Assembly: GCA_022573285.1 (NCBI GenBank)
Contig: JACZUF010000008.1
Coordinates: 9,962 to 73,961, forward strand
Length of the DNA stretch: 64,000 bases
Origin: Chloroflexota bacterium
Lineage (GTDB): Bacteria > Chloroflexota > Dehalococcoidia > Lucifugimonadales > UBA3495
Direction of reading: 5' to 3'
A program made the translations under genes and the position numbers. Under the pieces are notes generated by a model. That model saw nothing but the letters and a program-made list of their open reading frames with translations, made no database searches and was not told where the DNA came from. This document shows, in pieces, positions 41,195 to 45,368 of the stretch. How positions within the stretch are numbered: the stretch's first letter is position 1; every line of letters begins with the position of its first letter.

Positions 41195-41271
41195 GCGGCG
41201 CGGGCGGGGCCCGCGTGCCGATGCCACCCGGCCCCGTCCAGAATAGCAGTCCAGATCGAAGGAATTGTTCC

Positions 41272-42564
41272 ATGTTTATCGGATACTTCACTGAACGGCC
41301 TTACCAAGACCCCGAGTCGGGATTCTTCGGCGCCACGGGCAAGCCCATCAAGGACTTGACCCTCAGCAACGGCTCGTATAACCCCGAACTGGGCGCTAAT
41401 CTGTACAACCGCTATCTGGACGAGAAGATCTACGCCGAGGAGATGGGCTTCGACGGCCTGGTGCTGAACGAGCACCACAGCACCCCGTTCTGCATGGGCG
41501 GCGCGATGAACGTCGAAGCTTCCATCCTGGCCCGCATCACCAAACGGGCGAAGATTGTCCTCTTGGGCAATATTCTGCCGATCTGGGACGACCCTCTATG
41601 GCTGGTCGAGCAACTCGCCATGATCGACCTCATCTCCCATGGCCGCCTGGTCTCGGGATGGGTCCGGGGCACCGGGCGCGAAAGCGTGGCCCACAACTCG
41701 CCGCCGCCCTACAACTGGGAACGGTTCAAAGAAGCCCACGAGTTCATCATCAAGGCCTGGACCACTCCCGGCCCCTTCCGCTGGGAGGGCAAGCACTACC
41801 AGTACCGCCACGTAAACCCCTGGGTCCGCCCTTACCAGAAGCCGCATCCGCAGATCTGGCTCCCCGGCGTGGTCAGCCGCGACTCGCTGATGTGGGCCGC
41901 CGAGCAGCGCATCCCCTACATCATGCTCTCAACCGAGATGGAACCCACCCGGCAGGCGTTCCAGCTATACCACGACGCCGCAGCCGAGCAGGGATATGAG
42001 TCCGGCCCTCAGAACCTCGGTTATCTATGGAAGGTCCATGTGGACGAGACCGAGGAATTGGCCGAGCAGACCGCCCGAAAATTCATCCAGGGTCCCAGCA
42101 ATCCATTCTTGGCGGGCAACGAAGGCACCATGAACCCGGCCCTACTCGCCCTGCCGGGGCTATCCTCCCGCCACCGGGTGCTGCCCACCCAGTCAGTGGC
42201 CACCGCAGCCCGGGGCGGAGCGGGCGGCGTCCTGGGCCGGCCCTTCGAACAGCAGATCAAGGACTACACCATCATCACCGGGACTCCCAAGACCGTGATC
42301 CCCAAGATCCGCCACGTCCTGGAGTACATCCGGCCCGGCAGCGTGTTCTTCTGGGACGGCGACGGCGCCATGACCCACGACGACGCCATGCGCAGCCTGA
42401 GGCTCATGGGCGAAGAGGTCATACCCGCGGTCCGCGAGATCGCCGACGACCTGGAACTGCCCGGCTCCTTCGAGGTGGACACGGCCACCGGCAAACCCAT
42501 CGAAGAATCCCCAGAGACACCGCAGGCCCCGTTGGTTGCCGAAGACAGCCAAAGCCAGGACTAG
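41272..42564 (+). CDS. Luciferase-like (LLM class) flavin-dependent oxidoreductase
   Basis: MFIGYFTERPYQD...AEEMGFDGLVLNEHHSTPFCMGG...LLGNILPIWDDP... LLM pattern. ATG 41272 is used rather than GTG 41215. Confidence 0.8.
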   Translation: MFIGYFTERPYQDPESGFFGATGKPIKDLTLSNGSYNPELGANLYNRYLDEKIYAEEMGFDGLVLNEHHSTPFCMGGAMNVEASILARITKRAKIVLLGNILPIWDDPLWLVEQLAMIDLISHGRLVSGWVRGTGRESVAHNSPPPYNWERFKEAHEFIIKAWTTPGPFRWEGKHYQYRHVNPWVRPYQKPHPQIWLPGVVSRDSLMWAAEQRIPYIMLSTEMEPTRQAFQLYHDAAAEQGYESGPQNLGYLWKVHVDETEELAEQTARKFIQGPSNPFLAGNEGTMNPALLALPGLSSRHRVLPTQSVATAARGGAGGVLGRPFEQQIKDYTIITGTPKTVIPKIRHVLEYIRPGSVFFWDGDGAMTHDDAMRSLRLMGEEVIPAVREIADDLELPGSFEVDTATGKPIEESPETPQAPLVAEDSQSQD

Positions 42565-42595
42565 TCCCGTACCGGCGTTCGCAACCAAGCGATCT

Positions 42596-42640
42596 GATCC
42601 CCCCTGGCTTAATCAAGAATGGCCAGGGGGATCTTTGATT
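42596..42640 (+). terminator. Rho-independent terminator after the LLM gene
   Basis: GATCCCCCCTGGC-loop-GCCAGGGGGATC followed by TTTGATTTG. Confidence 0.7.
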
Positions 42641-42688
42641 TGACCACCGGCTACCCACGGGCTACTCACCGGCGCATAATATGTCGCT

Positions 42689-44338
42689 ATGAACAACCAT
42701 GACGCGAGCGCGGACCTCAGCGCCGACGTTATCGTGATCGGAGGCGGTCCCGCCGGTAGCGCCGCGTCCACCATGCTGGCGCGCAAGGGCTGGCAGGTGA
42801 CGGTCTTGGAGCGGGAACGGTTCCCCAGGGACCATGTGGGGGAATCGTTGCTGCCTGCATCGATCCCGGTGCTGGAGGAGTTGGGCGCGCTGCCCGCCGT
42901 GGAAAGCGCCGGTTTCCTGCCCAAGTACGGGGCCACCATGGTCTGGGGCAGCGGCGACAGCCCATGGAGTTGGTACTTCAAAGAGACCAGCCAGCGTTAC
43001 CCCCATTCCTATCAGGTCTGGCGTCCTCAATTCGACCAGATCCTGCTGGACAACGCCAAGGCCCAAGGGGTCACCGTGCTGGAGGGCCACCAGGTTACCG
43101 GCGTTATCTTCGACGATGGGGAAGCGGTCGGAGTGGAGTTCACCAACGGCGAGGGCGTCTCCGGTGAGGCGCAATGCCGTTTCGTAGTCGATGCCAGCGG
43201 ACAGTCGACGCTGCTGGCGCGCCGCCTAAAGTTGAAACAGTGGGACCCATTCTTCCAGAACCTGGCGGTGTACGCCTACTTCACCGGGGCCCAACCGCTG
43301 CCCGAGCCCGACCAGAACAACATCTTCATCGTGTCCTATCAGCACGGTTGGCTCTGGAGCATTCCGCTGCATACCGGGCGCACCAGCGTCGGCGCGGTGG
43401 TGGACGCCAAGACCGGGCAGGAAGGCATCCAACGCAACGGCGCCAAGGCGTTCTTGGAAGCCCAGTTGGCCCAGAGCGGCCACCTGCAGGTCATGCTGGA
43501 GAACGCCAAGATGGACTCTGAGCCCACCGTGGTGCGGGACTGGTCCTACACCGCCGAAAAGATGTTCGGGCCCGGCTACATCCTGGCCGGAGACGCCGCC
43601 TGTTTCGTCGATCCGTTATTCTCTTCCGGGGTCCATCTTGCGCTGATGTCCGGGGTGCTGGCGGCGGCCTACGTGACCACGGCTCTCAACGACCCGTCGA
43701 TGGCCGGCGAAGCCGGTCAGGTGTACCAGGAACTGTACCTGCAAGAGTACAACCAGTTCCGCGAGATGGCCCGGCTGTTCTACTCCAGCAACCTCTCCGC
43801 CGAGTCCTATTTCTGGGAGGCCCGGCGCATCACCAACAGCGGCGAGTACTCGCCGCGCCACAGCTTCATACAGGCGGTGGCGGGACAGCCGCCGCGGGGC
43901 TACGAGCGGGTGGTGTTGGACCGGGGCCAAGCGCCGGAAGAATTCATCGAGAGCGTCCGCACCGTGGAATCGGAACGCCGGTCCCGGACCCAATGGTTGG
44001 CCGCCCTGGCCGCCGATCCCCAGCGCAACCAGGTGCTAAACGCGGTCCCCCGCCTGGCCGAGGGCGTGCAGGTCCAGCGCAAACCGGTGCTGGCCGAGGG
44101 GGAATTCGTCCAGGGACATGTGCTGAACACCGTCTCCCAACCGGAGGGCACGCCTTGCAGCCCCCTGGTGGCCGCCGTAATCGGCGCGGTTGACGGTCAG
44201 AAGTCCGTCGCCGACATCGTGGACGGTCTGGGACAGCATCTGGACCAAGCCGGTCACGCCCAGCTCGAAGAAGCCGTTTCCCGCACTATCGAGATACTCT
44301 ACGTCGACGGCACCGTGGCCGGGCTGGTCACGGAGTGA
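42689..44338 (+). CDS. Flavin-dependent halogenase-like FAD enzyme with C-terminal PqqD/RRE-like extension
   Basis: DVIVIGGGPAGSAAS (GxGxxG), LPKYGAT (conserved Lys region), HGWLWSIPL (WxWxIP), FVDPLFSSGVHLAL (Fx.Px.Sx.G). The last ~100 aa contain ...SPLVAAVIGAVDGQKSVADIVDGLGQHL...EEAVSRTIEILYVDGTV.... Confidence 0.7.
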   Translation: MNNHDASADLSADVIVIGGGPAGSAASTMLARKGWQVTVLERERFPRDHVGESLLPASIPVLEELGALPAVESAGFLPKYGATMVWGSGDSPWSWYFKETSQRYPHSYQVWRPQFDQILLDNAKAQGVTVLEGHQVTGVIFDDGEAVGVEFTNGEGVSGEAQCRFVVDASGQSTLLARRLKLKQWDPFFQNLAVYAYFTGAQPLPEPDQNNIFIVSYQHGWLWSIPLHTGRTSVGAVVDAKTGQEGIQRNGAKAFLEAQLAQSGHLQVMLENAKMDSEPTVVRDWSYTAEKMFGPGYILAGDAACFVDPLFSSGVHLALMSGVLAAAYVTTALNDPSMAGEAGQVYQELYLQEYNQFREMARLFYSSNLSAESYFWEARRITNSGEYSPRHSFIQAVAGQPPRGYERVVLDRGQAPEEFIESVRTVESERRSRTQWLAALAADPQRNQVLNAVPRLAEGVQVQRKPVLAEGEFVQGHVLNTVSQPEGTPCSPLVAAVIGAVDGQKSVADIVDGLGQHLDQAGHAQLEEAVSRTIEILYVDGTVAGLVTE

Positions 44339-44394
44339 GCGGGCAATGCCCGTTCCTCTTTCGTCCGTTCTTCTTTCTTGTAGGATACGAGTCC

Positions 44395-44480
44395 AGAGTC
44401 AGGGCGGGTTTGAAACCCGCCCCTACGTCCATAAAAGGGGATTAAAAAGTCCGTTCGTCCTGAGCTTGTCGAAGGACCCA
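44395..44480. repeat. REP-like elements (GGGCGGGTTTGAAACCCGCCCCTAC plus CCGTTCGTCCTGAGCTTGTCGAAGGAC)
   Basis: 44402-44426 is the inverted form of the 37401-37425 hairpin. 44451-44477 is a second repeat type. It translates as ...FVLSLSKD..., a peptide I recall from spurious ORFs, here seen in the 44190..44507 track ORF. Confidence 0.65.
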
Positions 44481-44516: not shown

Positions 44517-45368
44517 ATGGCGACCAAGCAGATACCCACGGAAGAACAGGTGATCGGTTGGATGGACTCGCTCAGCAACTGGGGACGCTGGGGCGACGAC
44601 GACCAGATGGGCACTCTGAACCTGATTACCGACGCCAAACGGGCCCAGGCGGCCGGCCTGGTGAAAGAGGGCATCAGCGTCACCTGTTCCCGGCTGATCG
44701 TCCCGGAGCACGCCGCCGATGTCACATCGATCCCACCTCTGCACTACATGATCCGGGCCGGCGACACGGTCCCCGCCCAGGGTGGCGGCGGGACCTCCGA
44801 CTTCCTGGGATTCTCTTACCACGGTCTGACCATCACCCACATAGACGCGCTGTGCCACCAGGCCTGGAACGGCAAGCTCTACAACGGCAAGGACGCGTCC
44901 TTGGTCGGCAGCGAGACCAAGGCCACGGTGCTGGACATCGACCGGGCCCAGAACGGCATCATCACCCGGGGCGTCATGTTGGACATCGCCAAGGTGCGCG
45001 GCGTCGACTGGCTGGAGGCCGGCGAAGGCGTGTTCACCGAGGACCTGGAAGCCGCCGAGAAGGCTCAGGGCGTCCGGTTGGAAGAGGGCGACGCCCTGAT
45101 GCTGCGGCTGGGCTGGTACAAACGGCGGCTGGAGAAGGGCGCCCCCGCATCGGGCCGGCCCGGTCTCCACGCCGAAACCTTGCCGTGGCTGAAAGAGCGC
45201 GGCATCTCGATCGTCGGCATGGGACTATGGCTGATAGACGCCGCCAACTGCGAGGAACTGGCGGCAGTCTGCGAACGCCTGAACCGCTACGAGTTCATGT
45301 TCATCGTGGCCCCGCGGCGGTTCAAGAACGCCACCGGCTCCCCCACCAATCCCCTGGCCCTCTTCTAG
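44517..45368 (+). CDS. Putative cyclase family protein (kynurenine-formamidase-like fold)
   Basis: ...WGRWGDDDQMGTLNLIT... and ...SYHGLTITHIDALCH... resemble the HxGTHxDxPxH region of cyclase-family proteins. 283 aa. Confidence 0.7.
   Translation: MATKQIPTEEQVIGWMDSLSNWGRWGDDDQMGTLNLITDAKRAQAAGLVKEGISVTCSRLIVPEHAADVTSIPPLHYMIRAGDTVPAQGGGGTSDFLGFSYHGLTITHIDALCHQAWNGKLYNGKDASLVGSETKATVLDIDRAQNGIITRGVMLDIAKVRGVDWLEAGEGVFTEDLEAAEKAQGVRLEEGDALMLRLGWYKRRLEKGAPASGRPGLHAETLPWLKERGISIVGMGLWLIDAANCEELAAVCERLNRYEFMFIVAPRRFKNATGSPTNPLALF

Follow-up and report, generated by a model that had tools for sequence, protein, structure and literature searches.

Organization of the locus

The window, the whole 64,000-nucleotide stretch of DNA that was analysed, carries on its forward strand a halogenase gene (P0001; 42689..44338) whose open reading frame encodes 549 residues. 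Upstream on the same strand lies a luciferase-like monooxygenase (LLM) of 430 residues (41272..42564; Pfam PF00296, 6.5e-31), its length counted from Met20 of a GTG-initiated frame that starts at 41215. Downstream, again on the forward strand, is a cyclase-family gene (44517..45368; Pfam PF04199) that bears an in-frame 26-codon deletion. Both neighbours had been named as such in the initial annotation of this DNA, and both identities are borne out. The LLM has only distant solved relatives, all of the luciferase type, and is 68% identical to the LLM that adjoins the G348 halogenase.

The spacer between the LLM and the halogenase contains a forward-strand hairpin at 42594..42633 (fold of 42585-42650, -26.1 kcal/mol, z -2.8), and two more forward-strand hairpins follow the halogenase stop at 44337-44355 and 44402-44422 (z -4.1), the first of which is terminator-like. 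No credible small ORF was found in the halogenase flanks within the window, in agreement with the earlier remark that these short flanks hold no obvious precursor.

The catalytic domain

Residues 1-400 (42689..43888, forward strand) were assigned to a FAD-binding and halogenase catalytic domain by alignment to CndH and FasV, Foldseek matches and motifs. Pfam Trp_halogenase (PF04820) scores 143.6 bits on this protein against a cut-off of 21, and FAD_binding_3 matches it at 1.2e-21. Four elements had been claimed as a halogenase signature, and all are present on the forward strand: GxGxxG (GGGPAG, residues 18-23; 42740-42757), a lysine within GFLPKYGATMVWG (Lys79; codon 42923-42925), WxWxIP (GWLWSIPL, residues 220-227; 43349-43366) and FVDPLFSSG (residues 306-314; 43604-43630). 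Each is at least 96% conserved among 77 relatives; in these diverged sequences Lys79, WxWxIP and FxDPxFSxG reach 99-100%, with 99% for Lys79 itself and for W221, W223, I225 and P226 of WxWxIP. The catalytic lysine of such halogenases is Lys79 in PrnA and Lys76 in CndH. Lys79 of the present protein aligns with CndH Lys76, and the residue whose absence had been named as one ground for refutation is thus in place.

Among solved structures, CndH (3e1t, 8e-84), FasV (8zop) and CmlS (3i3l) match best, and an AF2 model of the whole protein (pLDDT 85.3, pTM 0.86) likewise has halogenases as its top Foldseek matches (FasV, CmlS, CndH, PltA and Bmp2). More than 7000 homologues are present in the database, the best 120 of which, from SAR202/Dehalococcoidia MAGs, share 88-98% identity with the halogenase. 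The ORF is predicted from its sequence to encode a genuine halogenase-type flavoenzyme of the CndH/FasV/CmlS variant-B clade.

It is quite improbable that the protein is instead a flavin monooxygenase, that is, a hydroxylase retaining ancestral halogenase motifs. QhpG/LodB-type relatives do hydroxylate on the same scaffold and keep the WxW motif, but in true QhpG hydroxylases the lysine that is conserved across the 77 diverged sequences here is replaced by Ser or Pro, and the full WxWxIP by WFWGAP. Furthermore, the nearest relatives by both sequence and fold are proven halogenases.

The C-terminal domain and linker

A second domain occupies residues 449-549 (44033..44335, forward strand), as delimited by AF2, profiles and Foldseek. 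In the AF2 model it comprises strands at residues 453-456, 461-469, 472-480 and 488-490, helices at 492-500, 507-514 and 520-540, and a final strand at 543-547. Modelled alone, the domain reaches a pLDDT of 95.8, with strands at 14-17, 22-30 and 33-41, helices at 53-61, 68-75 and 81-101, and two further short strands in its own numbering. The initial annotation had read this C-terminus as PqqD/RRE-like and had weighed that reading against the C-terminal lid of PltA/PrnA-type halogenases; the domain is a winged helix and does not correspond to the helical lid of those enzymes.

For a single sequence, the resemblance to PqqD falls below the family cut-offs, both for PF05402 (E 0.034, 14.9 bits against 23.4) and for NCBIfam PqqD TIGR03859 (17.8 bits against 46). 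PF05402 gives sub-threshold matches in 22 of 50 members of the halogenase family, the best at 1.3e-4. The assignment that the single sequence misses is recovered at the level of profiles: hhalign matched the domain profile to a PqqD alignment at 97.8% (E 1.2e-12, 88 columns), the latter consisting of 11 members drawn from weak matches of the same domain profile, 9 of which pass PF05402. Against the PDB, the domain profile ranked PqqD 3g2b (0.016) and PqqD 5sxy (0.085) at the top, with QhpG at 0.14. The ranking of 3g2b and 5sxy is independent of the alignment used in hhalign. Judged from these profiles, the resemblance to PqqD is real, if sub-threshold for a single sequence.

Foldseek of the domain alone returned GdmN, a polyketide carbamoyltransferase, as the top match, together with the TbiB1 and TfuB1 RREs, QhpG and CmlS. 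The leader-bound RREs TbiB1 (5v1u/5v1v) and TfuB1 (6jx3) matched with probabilities of 0.92-0.99, TM-scores of 0.54-0.57 (query) and 0.67-0.69 (target), and E-values of 0.085-0.35. The best fold matches other than GdmN, namely the lasso B1 RREs, QhpG, PKMT and Rv2067c, all have peptides or proteins as their targets. The hhalign result, the PDB profile search, AF2 and Foldseek agree that the C-terminal domain is a PqqD-superfamily winged helix. How it sits relative to the catalytic domain is predicted by the AF2 model, with a pTM of 0.86.

The linker AGQPPRGYERVVLDRGQAP (residues 396-416; 43874..43936, forward strand) is conserved at 12 positions to at least 97% in 77 sequences and is predicted to be disordered, with pLDDT below 50 at residues 401-416. 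The wing loops GEFxWG and PEGxPxS are, like the linker, unusually conserved. The linker is a candidate loop for partner or substrate binding.

Residues 487-544 also matched the giant NHL-repeat proteins P0142, P0208 and P0214 in 11, 5 and 4 repeats, respectively, of which P0142 and P0208 were recognized as NHL/beta-propeller surface proteins in a Pfam scan of these two. Kinship with them was rejected as compositional likeness (VDGxxxVAD).

Conservation of the locus across related genomes

Related loci were gathered with an 11-sequence alignment from 80 species-level genomes, comprising SAR202 and other Dehalococcoidia, Entotheonella, Tepidiformaceae and one Myxococcota MAG. As to how often homologues carry the C-terminal extension, the winged helix is fused to the halogenase in all 80. 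The halogenase was present in 40 of 301 sampled Dehalococcoidia genomes, and the family is vertically conserved in streamlined marine bacteria at one or two copies per genome. A single PqqD-like domain is found in the whole source genome.

An LLM ortholog lies upstream of the halogenase on the same strand in 72 of the 80 loci, usually adjacent to it, and on the opposite strand in one further locus. Identity ranges from 64 to 97% for the LLM and from 53 to 96% for the halogenase catalytic domain, the LLM being the higher in all but one locus. Further companions are a cyclase as the downstream cassette member (35/80), an alpha/beta-hydrolase (32/80) and a MOSC protein (7/80); loci L025, L030 and L032 follow the same pattern. 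The genes that intervene between LLM and halogenase are mobile or defence genes in many genomes, and the inserted ORFs include Uma2, MmeI, ParA-like, PaREP1-like or a second LLM. The hydrolase-LLM pair also occurs in four FDH-less genomes with readable flanks, three of them from one genus, where the LLM and hydrolase are 77-79% identical; the contig of a fifth such genome ends too soon to judge. The halogenase is thus an optional third member of a cassette of the form [alpha/beta-hydrolase]-LLM-halogenase-[cyclase or MOSC]. Because LLM and hydrolase occur in several genomes without any halogenase, the LLM does not need it. Membership of the cassette is linkage, and is not evidence of a common substrate.

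The fusion to an RRE had been taken to imply a RiPP-like peptide substrate. The 80 genomes do not bear this out: they show neither a precursor-like conserved small ORF nor a RiPP gene, and the constant partners are the LLM and hydrolases, not RiPP enzymes. Neither a conserved small ORF nor a protease, a radical-SAM enzyme or an exporter turned up around the 80 loci, and clustering of their 4476 small ORFs yielded only clusters that resemble alternative-frame shadows of neighbouring genes. With none credible in the flanks either, small ORFs were rejected as precursors.

A classical RiPP tailoring halogenase, its RRE binding the leader of a precursor peptide from another part of the genome, would nevertheless fit the PqqD/RRE fold and homology of the domain. 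Among the weak matches of the domain profile in the phylum are also bona fide RRE fusions (to radical-SAM, M50 peptidase, HPr-kinase-like and glycosyltransferase proteins). Such an enzyme would be new, since MibH, SrpI and ChlH are not reported with an RRE in the literature found. Likewise, none of the publications that we found describes a halogenase to which a PqqD-like recognition domain is fused, and the accessible part of the supplement of a 2025 RRE paper lists no entry for PF04820 or halogenase. Several findings stand against this reading. Within ~8 kb, the examined loci showed no precursor and no protease, nor an exporter or another RiPP enzyme; the genome has a single PqqD-like domain; and the vertical conservation at one or two copies per genome differs from the patchy distribution of RiPP clusters. 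We regard it as very unlikely.

Discussion

Our leading interpretation, held tentatively and at somewhat less than an even chance, is that the protein is a CmlS/CndH-type halogenase whose substrate is a metabolite of the LLM pathway, and that its winged helix serves as a pocket lid or recognition module. It would be a working two-component flavin-dependent halogenase. By the established chemistry of halogenases, an unlinked flavin reductase would supply FADH2, whose reaction with O2 and halide would yield hypohalous acid. The acid would move through the tunnel lined by WxWxIP to Lys79, which would pass the halogen to an electron-rich substrate carbon. The winged helix would lie over the catalytic domain, as in CmlS and QhpG, and form the substrate pocket or a recognition surface. 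The three cassette enzymes may act on one shared conserved metabolite, in which case the winged helix would be a lid or recognition module and would not receive the leader peptide of a nearby RiPP cluster.

Several observations count against a metabolite. To our knowledge, all PqqD-family domains characterised so far are peptide binders. The best fold matches other than GdmN are peptide- or protein-acting, and the conserved wing loops and disordered linker would suit a fixed macromolecular partner. The winged-helix fold itself does not settle the substrate, because CmlS, QhpG and GdmN share it across differing substrates. A peptide or protein substrate is, in our view, a rather unlikely outcome, albeit one with an appreciable chance.

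Such a substrate could be met in the manner of the QhpG, LodB and GoxB maturases. The winged helix would then dock a ribosomal polypeptide, either the LLM or a small protein whose gene lies elsewhere, and the enzyme would halogenate its Trp or Tyr residues. Halogenation of Trp or Tyr in such a scheme is perhaps a step towards a protein-derived cofactor. The catalytic domain matches the QhpG model at 6.8e-64, LodB at 5.7e-41 and GoxB at 1.6e-30; the catalytic-domain plus winged-helix architecture is shared with QhpG; and the domain is homologous to PqqD. Moreover, the gene almost constantly adjoins one very conserved protein, the LLM, the linker is conserved yet disordered, and high conservation at one or two copies per genome is more readily explained by a macromolecular target that is itself conserved than by a natural product that varies.

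However, the equivalog scores all miss their NCBIfam cut-offs (QhpG 216.3/240, LodB 140.8/400 and GoxB 106.4/400 bits), the domain profile had no significant hhalign match to the one QhpG winged-helix sequence compared, and no QhpC/QhpD, LodA or GoxA operon genes were found around the halogenase locus. Halogenase-free genomes keep the LLM and hydrolase at 77-79% identity, and mobile genes separate LLM from halogenase in many others. A maturase of this kind is judged unlikely. The existence of the hydrolase-LLM pair without the halogenase also weakens the narrower idea of an obligate LLM maturase. QhpG orthology was rejected on the sub-cut-off score, the presence of Lys79 and the absence of qhp context.

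It is doubtful that this is the first flavin-dependent halogenase to dock a ribosomal peptide or protein through a built-in PqqD/RRE-type domain. If true, the halogenation would be post-translational and site-specific, perhaps connected with the LLM pathway, and conserved in abundant deep-ocean SAR202 bacteria and Entotheonella sponge symbionts, not confined to one rare cluster.

Flavin-dependent halogenases are wanted biocatalysts, and substrate recognition is the chief limit on their use. The host of the present enzyme is a deep-ocean SAR202 bacterium, and the gene belongs to a conserved cassette of oxygenase and hydrolase genes, not to a cluster for a peptide natural product. SAR202 bacteria have been linked to the oxidation of recalcitrant marine organic matter. 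The halogenase family is large and strongly conserved, and stands beside an LLM of the kind expanded in SAR202. The identity of the substrate would reveal whether abundant ocean bacteria routinely halogenate metabolites or proteins, and would also show the purpose of the winged helix in CmlS-type and QhpG-type enzymes.

Comparison with known systems

CmlS, the chloramphenicol halogenase of Streptomyces venezuelae (PDB 3I3L), has the same order of a FAD/halogenase catalytic domain followed by a C-terminal winged helix. Foldseek aligns all 549 columns (E 3.6e-37), and phmmer matches it at 7.4e-77 across residues 12-404. CmlS has the catalytic Lys and WxWxIP as well, and is not known to have a peptide substrate. 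It differs in several respects. Identity is 29%; on the NCBIfam CmlS equivalog NF033113 the present protein reaches 314.6 bits where 900 are required, with only model positions 3-380 matched; the C-terminal domains have no sequence match (fold match E 0.57, TM 0.45); and CmlS belongs to an antibiotic cluster whereas the present gene lies in an LLM-hydrolase cassette.

The closest catalytic domains are those of CndH (3E1T) and FasV (8ZOP), at 8e-84 and 3.6e-83, respectively, and 37-38% identity. CndH and FasV come from polyketide or hybrid natural-product clusters. In contrast to the present protein, FasV, at 412 residues (408 in the solved chain), is without a C-terminal domain, and the C-terminus of CndH gave no match to the profile of the winged-helix domain.

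QhpG, a peptidyl-tryptophan dihydroxylase (7CTQ), also combines a halogenase-like catalytic domain with a winged helix. Foldseek aligns 547 columns, although the C-terminal domain matches weakly (Foldseek 0.066, hmmsearch 0.14). In QhpG the pocket lies between the catalytic domain and the C-terminal winged helix, and CmlS was named as the closest structure (PMC7876137). A genuine QhpG from locus L113 is 31% identical to the halogenase (E 2e-38), but adjoins a radical-SAM/SPASM gene. Besides the motif substitutions described above, QhpG differs in adjoining the radical-SAM gene for QhpD and in hydroxylating rather than halogenating.

PqqD (3G2B/5SXY) and the RREs of TbiB1 (5V1U/5V1V) and TfuB1 (6JX3) share the LxDGxxTVxEI-type turn. 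Unlike them, the halogenase domain adds the conserved wing loops and a terminal strand, and its locus has no cognate peptide or nearby RiPP enzymes.

MibH, SrpI and ChlH, likewise flavin-dependent halogenases, modify ribosomal peptides, the function first proposed for the present enzyme. They were absent from its sequence matches and from its best 50 Foldseek matches. In the literature found, substrate peptides are recognised by SrpI and ChlH through means other than an RRE. All three are of the Trp-halogenase (variant-A-like) type and reside in clear RiPP clusters.

Halogenase gene and locus

The open frame at 42689..44338 (+) encodes a protein of 549 aa (P0001), which ends in the C-terminal text quoted in the initial annotation. 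The halogenase signature read from the DNA was confirmed: GGGPAG (residues 18-23), GFLPKYGATMVWG with Lys79, GWLWSIPL (residues 220-227) and FVDPLFSSG (residues 306-314) are all present, and Pfam Trp_halogenase reaches 143.6 bits (cut-off 21). The NCBIfam CmlS model matches at 1.2e-93, yet with 314 bits where its cut-off is 900, and the QhpG model at 6.8e-64 with 216 bits against 240. The best matches among PDB sequences, CndH (3e1t, 8e-84), FasV (8zop, 3.6e-83) and CmlS (3i3l, 7.4e-77), are confined to residues ~11-404, and Lys79 aligns with the catalytic Lys76 of CndH. P0001 has more than 7000 homologues, the best 120 of which are 88-98% identical and named SAR202/Dehalococcoidia, the group to which the source bacterium belongs. 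Across 77 full-length members from different species, Lys79, W221, W223, I225, P226 and the entire FxDPLFSSGVHLA block are 97-100% conserved.

The gene order in the window is H+-pyrophosphatase (-), DUF3179 (-), luciferase-like monooxygenase (LLM, 41272..42564, +), halogenase (+), cyclase (+), a variable, A+T-richer cohesin island and a GMC oxidoreductase (-). The three plus-strand genes are set apart from each other by hairpins. The stable hairpin upstream of the halogenase gene (42594-42633, z -2.8, 13-bp G+C-rich stem) is possibly REP-like and not a terminator; further stable hairpins lie downstream (44337-44422, z -4.1). Compared with an 85%-identical homologue in the related locus L002, the cyclase gene (44517-45368) carries an in-frame 26-codon deletion at the junction 45209|45210. 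Because the missing text, VIAGDASQDCEPSGYPGIGLPVHRVG, probably holds a conserved cyclase motif, this copy may lack activity; alternatively, the deletion may reflect an assembly collapse at this point.

The C-terminus is a fused PqqD-superfamily winged helix

The AF2 model of P0001, built from a 64-row alignment (pLDDT 85.3, pTM 0.86), has a low-confidence linker (401-416), a long helix (417-441) and then the C-terminal domain (residues 449-549; 44033..44335). The domain comprises strands 453-456, 461-469, 472-480 and 488-490, helices 492-500, 507-514 and 520-540, and a final strand, 543-547; modeled alone, it reaches a pLDDT of 95.8. Leading Foldseek matches of the whole model were FasV, CmlS, CndH, RadH, ChlB4, Bmp2 and PltA, with alignments covering all 549 columns for CmlS and 547 for QhpG (7ctq). 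CmlS reportedly also has a C-terminal winged-helix-type domain at the same place. The domain alone matched the carbamoyltransferase GdmN domain (8e-4), the winged helix of the protein methyltransferases Rv2067c and PKMT1, QhpG (0.066, probability 0.91), CmlS (0.57) and the leader-bound lasso RiPP recognition elements (RREs) TbiB1 and TfuB1 (probability 0.92-0.99, TM 0.54-0.57 and 0.67-0.69). The C-terminus is therefore not a helical lid of the PltA/PrnA type. In the linker AGQPPRGYERVVLDRGQAP (43874-43936, residues 396-416), 12 positions show at least 97% conservation among 77 sequences, yet the segment is predicted to be disordered (pLDDT below 50); it is a candidate induced-fit binding loop.

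The PqqD resemblance proposed from the sequence was recovered by HMM searches with the last 101 aa, though only below threshold (PF05402, E 0.034; TIGR03859, PqqD, 0.0022); the RiPP-binding protein ApyI matched at 0.024. A 50-domain alignment (A1) has two invariant positions, F473 and S491, and conservation of 90% or more at G471, D502, G503, L537 and G541. The A1 profile ranks PqqD structures first in the PDB (3g2b, 0.016; 5sxy, 0.085), followed by the winged-helix segment 356-419 of QhpG (0.14); 22 of the 50 members have sub-threshold PF05402 matches and 10 match the PKMT winged helix. Weak A1 matches in 401 Chloroflexota genomes include PqqD-type domains, some of them stand-alone proteins of ~90 aa and others fused to an HPr-kinase-like protein, a glycosyltransferase, a B12/radical-SAM enzyme or M50 peptidases. 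Eleven PqqD-type matches were aligned (A3), nine of which pass PF05402 (best 1.2e-18). Aligning A1 with A3 in hhalign gave 97.8% probability (E 1.2e-12, 88 columns), a figure somewhat inflated because A3 was chosen from weak A1 matches; the independent PDB ranking is consistent with it. The C-terminus of P0001 is thus a fused PqqD-superfamily winged helix.

Residues 401-549, searched against 1.8 billion representatives, returned only 95 proteins, nearly all C-termini of P0001's own halogenase family and many on short contigs. Three giant proteins also matched and were rejected as spurious; the two scanned with Pfam are NHL-repeat surface proteins. Three metagenome proteins, P0127 (260 aa), P0122 (246 aa) and P0182 (141 aa), join the winged helix to other N-termini, namely that of an LLM, an unidentified N-terminal segment and an AMP-binding-like fragment; they probably arose by deletion or chimeric assembly, though genuine alternative fusions are conceivable.

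Other halogenases were also seen. The weak A1 matches include a group from other Chloroflexota (L012, L014, L017, L026 8660-10573) whose open frames reach 683 aa and combine a PqqD-like domain with a SEC-C metal-binding motif at the C-terminus. The L026 locus has no LLM; the halogenase gene there adjoins genes for an ABC transporter and a pterin-4a-carbinolamine dehydratase-domain protein. Several Dehalococcoidia genomes (G627:C9, G578:C22, G445:C16, G523, G591, G480, G565, G639) hold a second halogenase paralogue (570-612 aa), whose C-terminus gave no match to the domain profile at E 1e-10.

A conserved hydrolase-LLM-halogenase cassette

An 11-row domain alignment, used to scan species-representative genomes, yielded 80 loci, most of them Dehalococcoidia/SAR202; the rest include six Entotheonella/Tectimicrobiota, three Tepidiformaceae, one Myxococcota MAG and one MAG labelled Gammaproteobacteria. 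All 80 encode the winged helix C-terminal to the catalytic domain. With neighbours assigned by tblastn, 72 loci have an upstream LLM ortholog in the orientation of the halogenase, one more has the LLM on the opposite strand, and an alpha/beta-hydrolase precedes the LLM in 32; downstream of the halogenase are a cyclase (35/80) or a MOSC protein (7/80). Three related loci (L025, L030, L032) follow the same pattern. The hydrolase-LLM-halogenase cassette is conserved. LLM identity (64-97%, typically 80-85%) exceeds that of the halogenase catalytic domain (53-96%) at every LLM-bearing locus except one, and that of the winged helix (36-97%) with three exceptions. Conservation of the LLM is unusually high, at about 81% identity between SAR202 and Entotheonella; its subfamily has up to five paralogues per genome (62-72% identity), and its solved relatives are distant.

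Of 301 sampled genomes in this class, 66 encode the LLM subfamily (E <= 1e-100), often as 2-5 paralogues, 40 the halogenase catalytic domain and 38 a detectable winged helix. Every halogenase frame uncut by a contig end is 534-712 aa long, so no close homologue lacking the extension was seen in this set. Genomes of one genus have the LLM at 77-79% identity and no halogenase. In the four halogenase-less genomes with readable flanks (three of that genus and one other), the hydrolase still lies upstream of the LLM; a fifth contig was too short. Since these genomes keep it, the hydrolase-LLM pair is the core and the halogenase an optional add-on, almost never found away from that pair. This fits an extra step on the LLM pathway.

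Substrate of the halogenase

The initial annotation took the fused RRE to imply a RiPP-like peptide substrate. The fusion stood, but the gene context did not support a RiPP. In long LLM-halogenase spacers, the ORFs scanned are genes for Uma2 endonuclease, MmeI-type restriction-modification, a ParA-like ATPase or a PaREP1-like protein, or else a second LLM; Pfam returned nothing for three further ORFs, and no candidate precursor was present among the spacer ORFs examined. When 4476 small ORFs from all loci were clustered, every cluster resembled alternative-frame shadows of neighbouring genes. No RiPP context was found around the 80 halogenase loci, whose cassette partners are the hydrolase and LLM, and a classical RiPP encoded elsewhere is improbable. 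The spacer is also an insertion hot spot in relatives (L037, L063, L076, L082, L108, L111, L112).

A protein or peptide modified in the manner of QhpG or LodB is somewhat less remote, although still unlikely: every characterised PqqD domain has a peptide-binding record, the wing loops GEFxWG and PEGxPxS are strongly conserved, and the linker combines conservation with predicted disorder. The LLM itself could be such a partner, but an obligate role of the halogenase in its maturation is weakened because the hydrolase-LLM core persists without a halogenase; facultative modification is conceivable. We tentatively suggest instead a conserved metabolite common to the LLM and hydrolases. FADH2 would be supplied by an unlinked reductase and hypohalous acid passed on to Lys79, with the substrate perhaps lodged between catalytic domain and winged helix, as proposed for QhpG.

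Comparison with known halogenases and QhpG

Full-text literature searches turned up no description of a halogenase carrying a PqqD/RRE domain, and no RRE-type domain is reported in the peptide halogenases MibH, SrpI and ChlH. In the sections of the 2025 RRE survey considered here, RREs are fused to carbamoyltransferases and many uncharacterised domains, with no mention of halogenases; SAR202 papers mention halogenases in passing only.

QhpG has a winged-helix-type domain at the same place as P0001 (PMC7876137). For comparison, we used two genuine QhpG genes above the model cut-off, L113 (322 bits), which adjoins a radical-SAM/SPASM gene, and L114 (310 bits). The L113 protein is 31% identical to P0001 (E 2e-38). 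Where P0001 has FLPKYGATMVW, QhpG has FLRSQQAIVHW or FLRPNRAVVRW, placing Ser or Pro at the position of Lys79, and WxWxIP becomes WFWGAP. Because Lys79, WxWxIP and FxDPLFSSGVHLA are conserved in the P0001 family, while the first two are altered in QhpG, there is good evidence from sequence that halogenating chemistry is kept, and there is little chance that P0001 is a hydroxylase instead.
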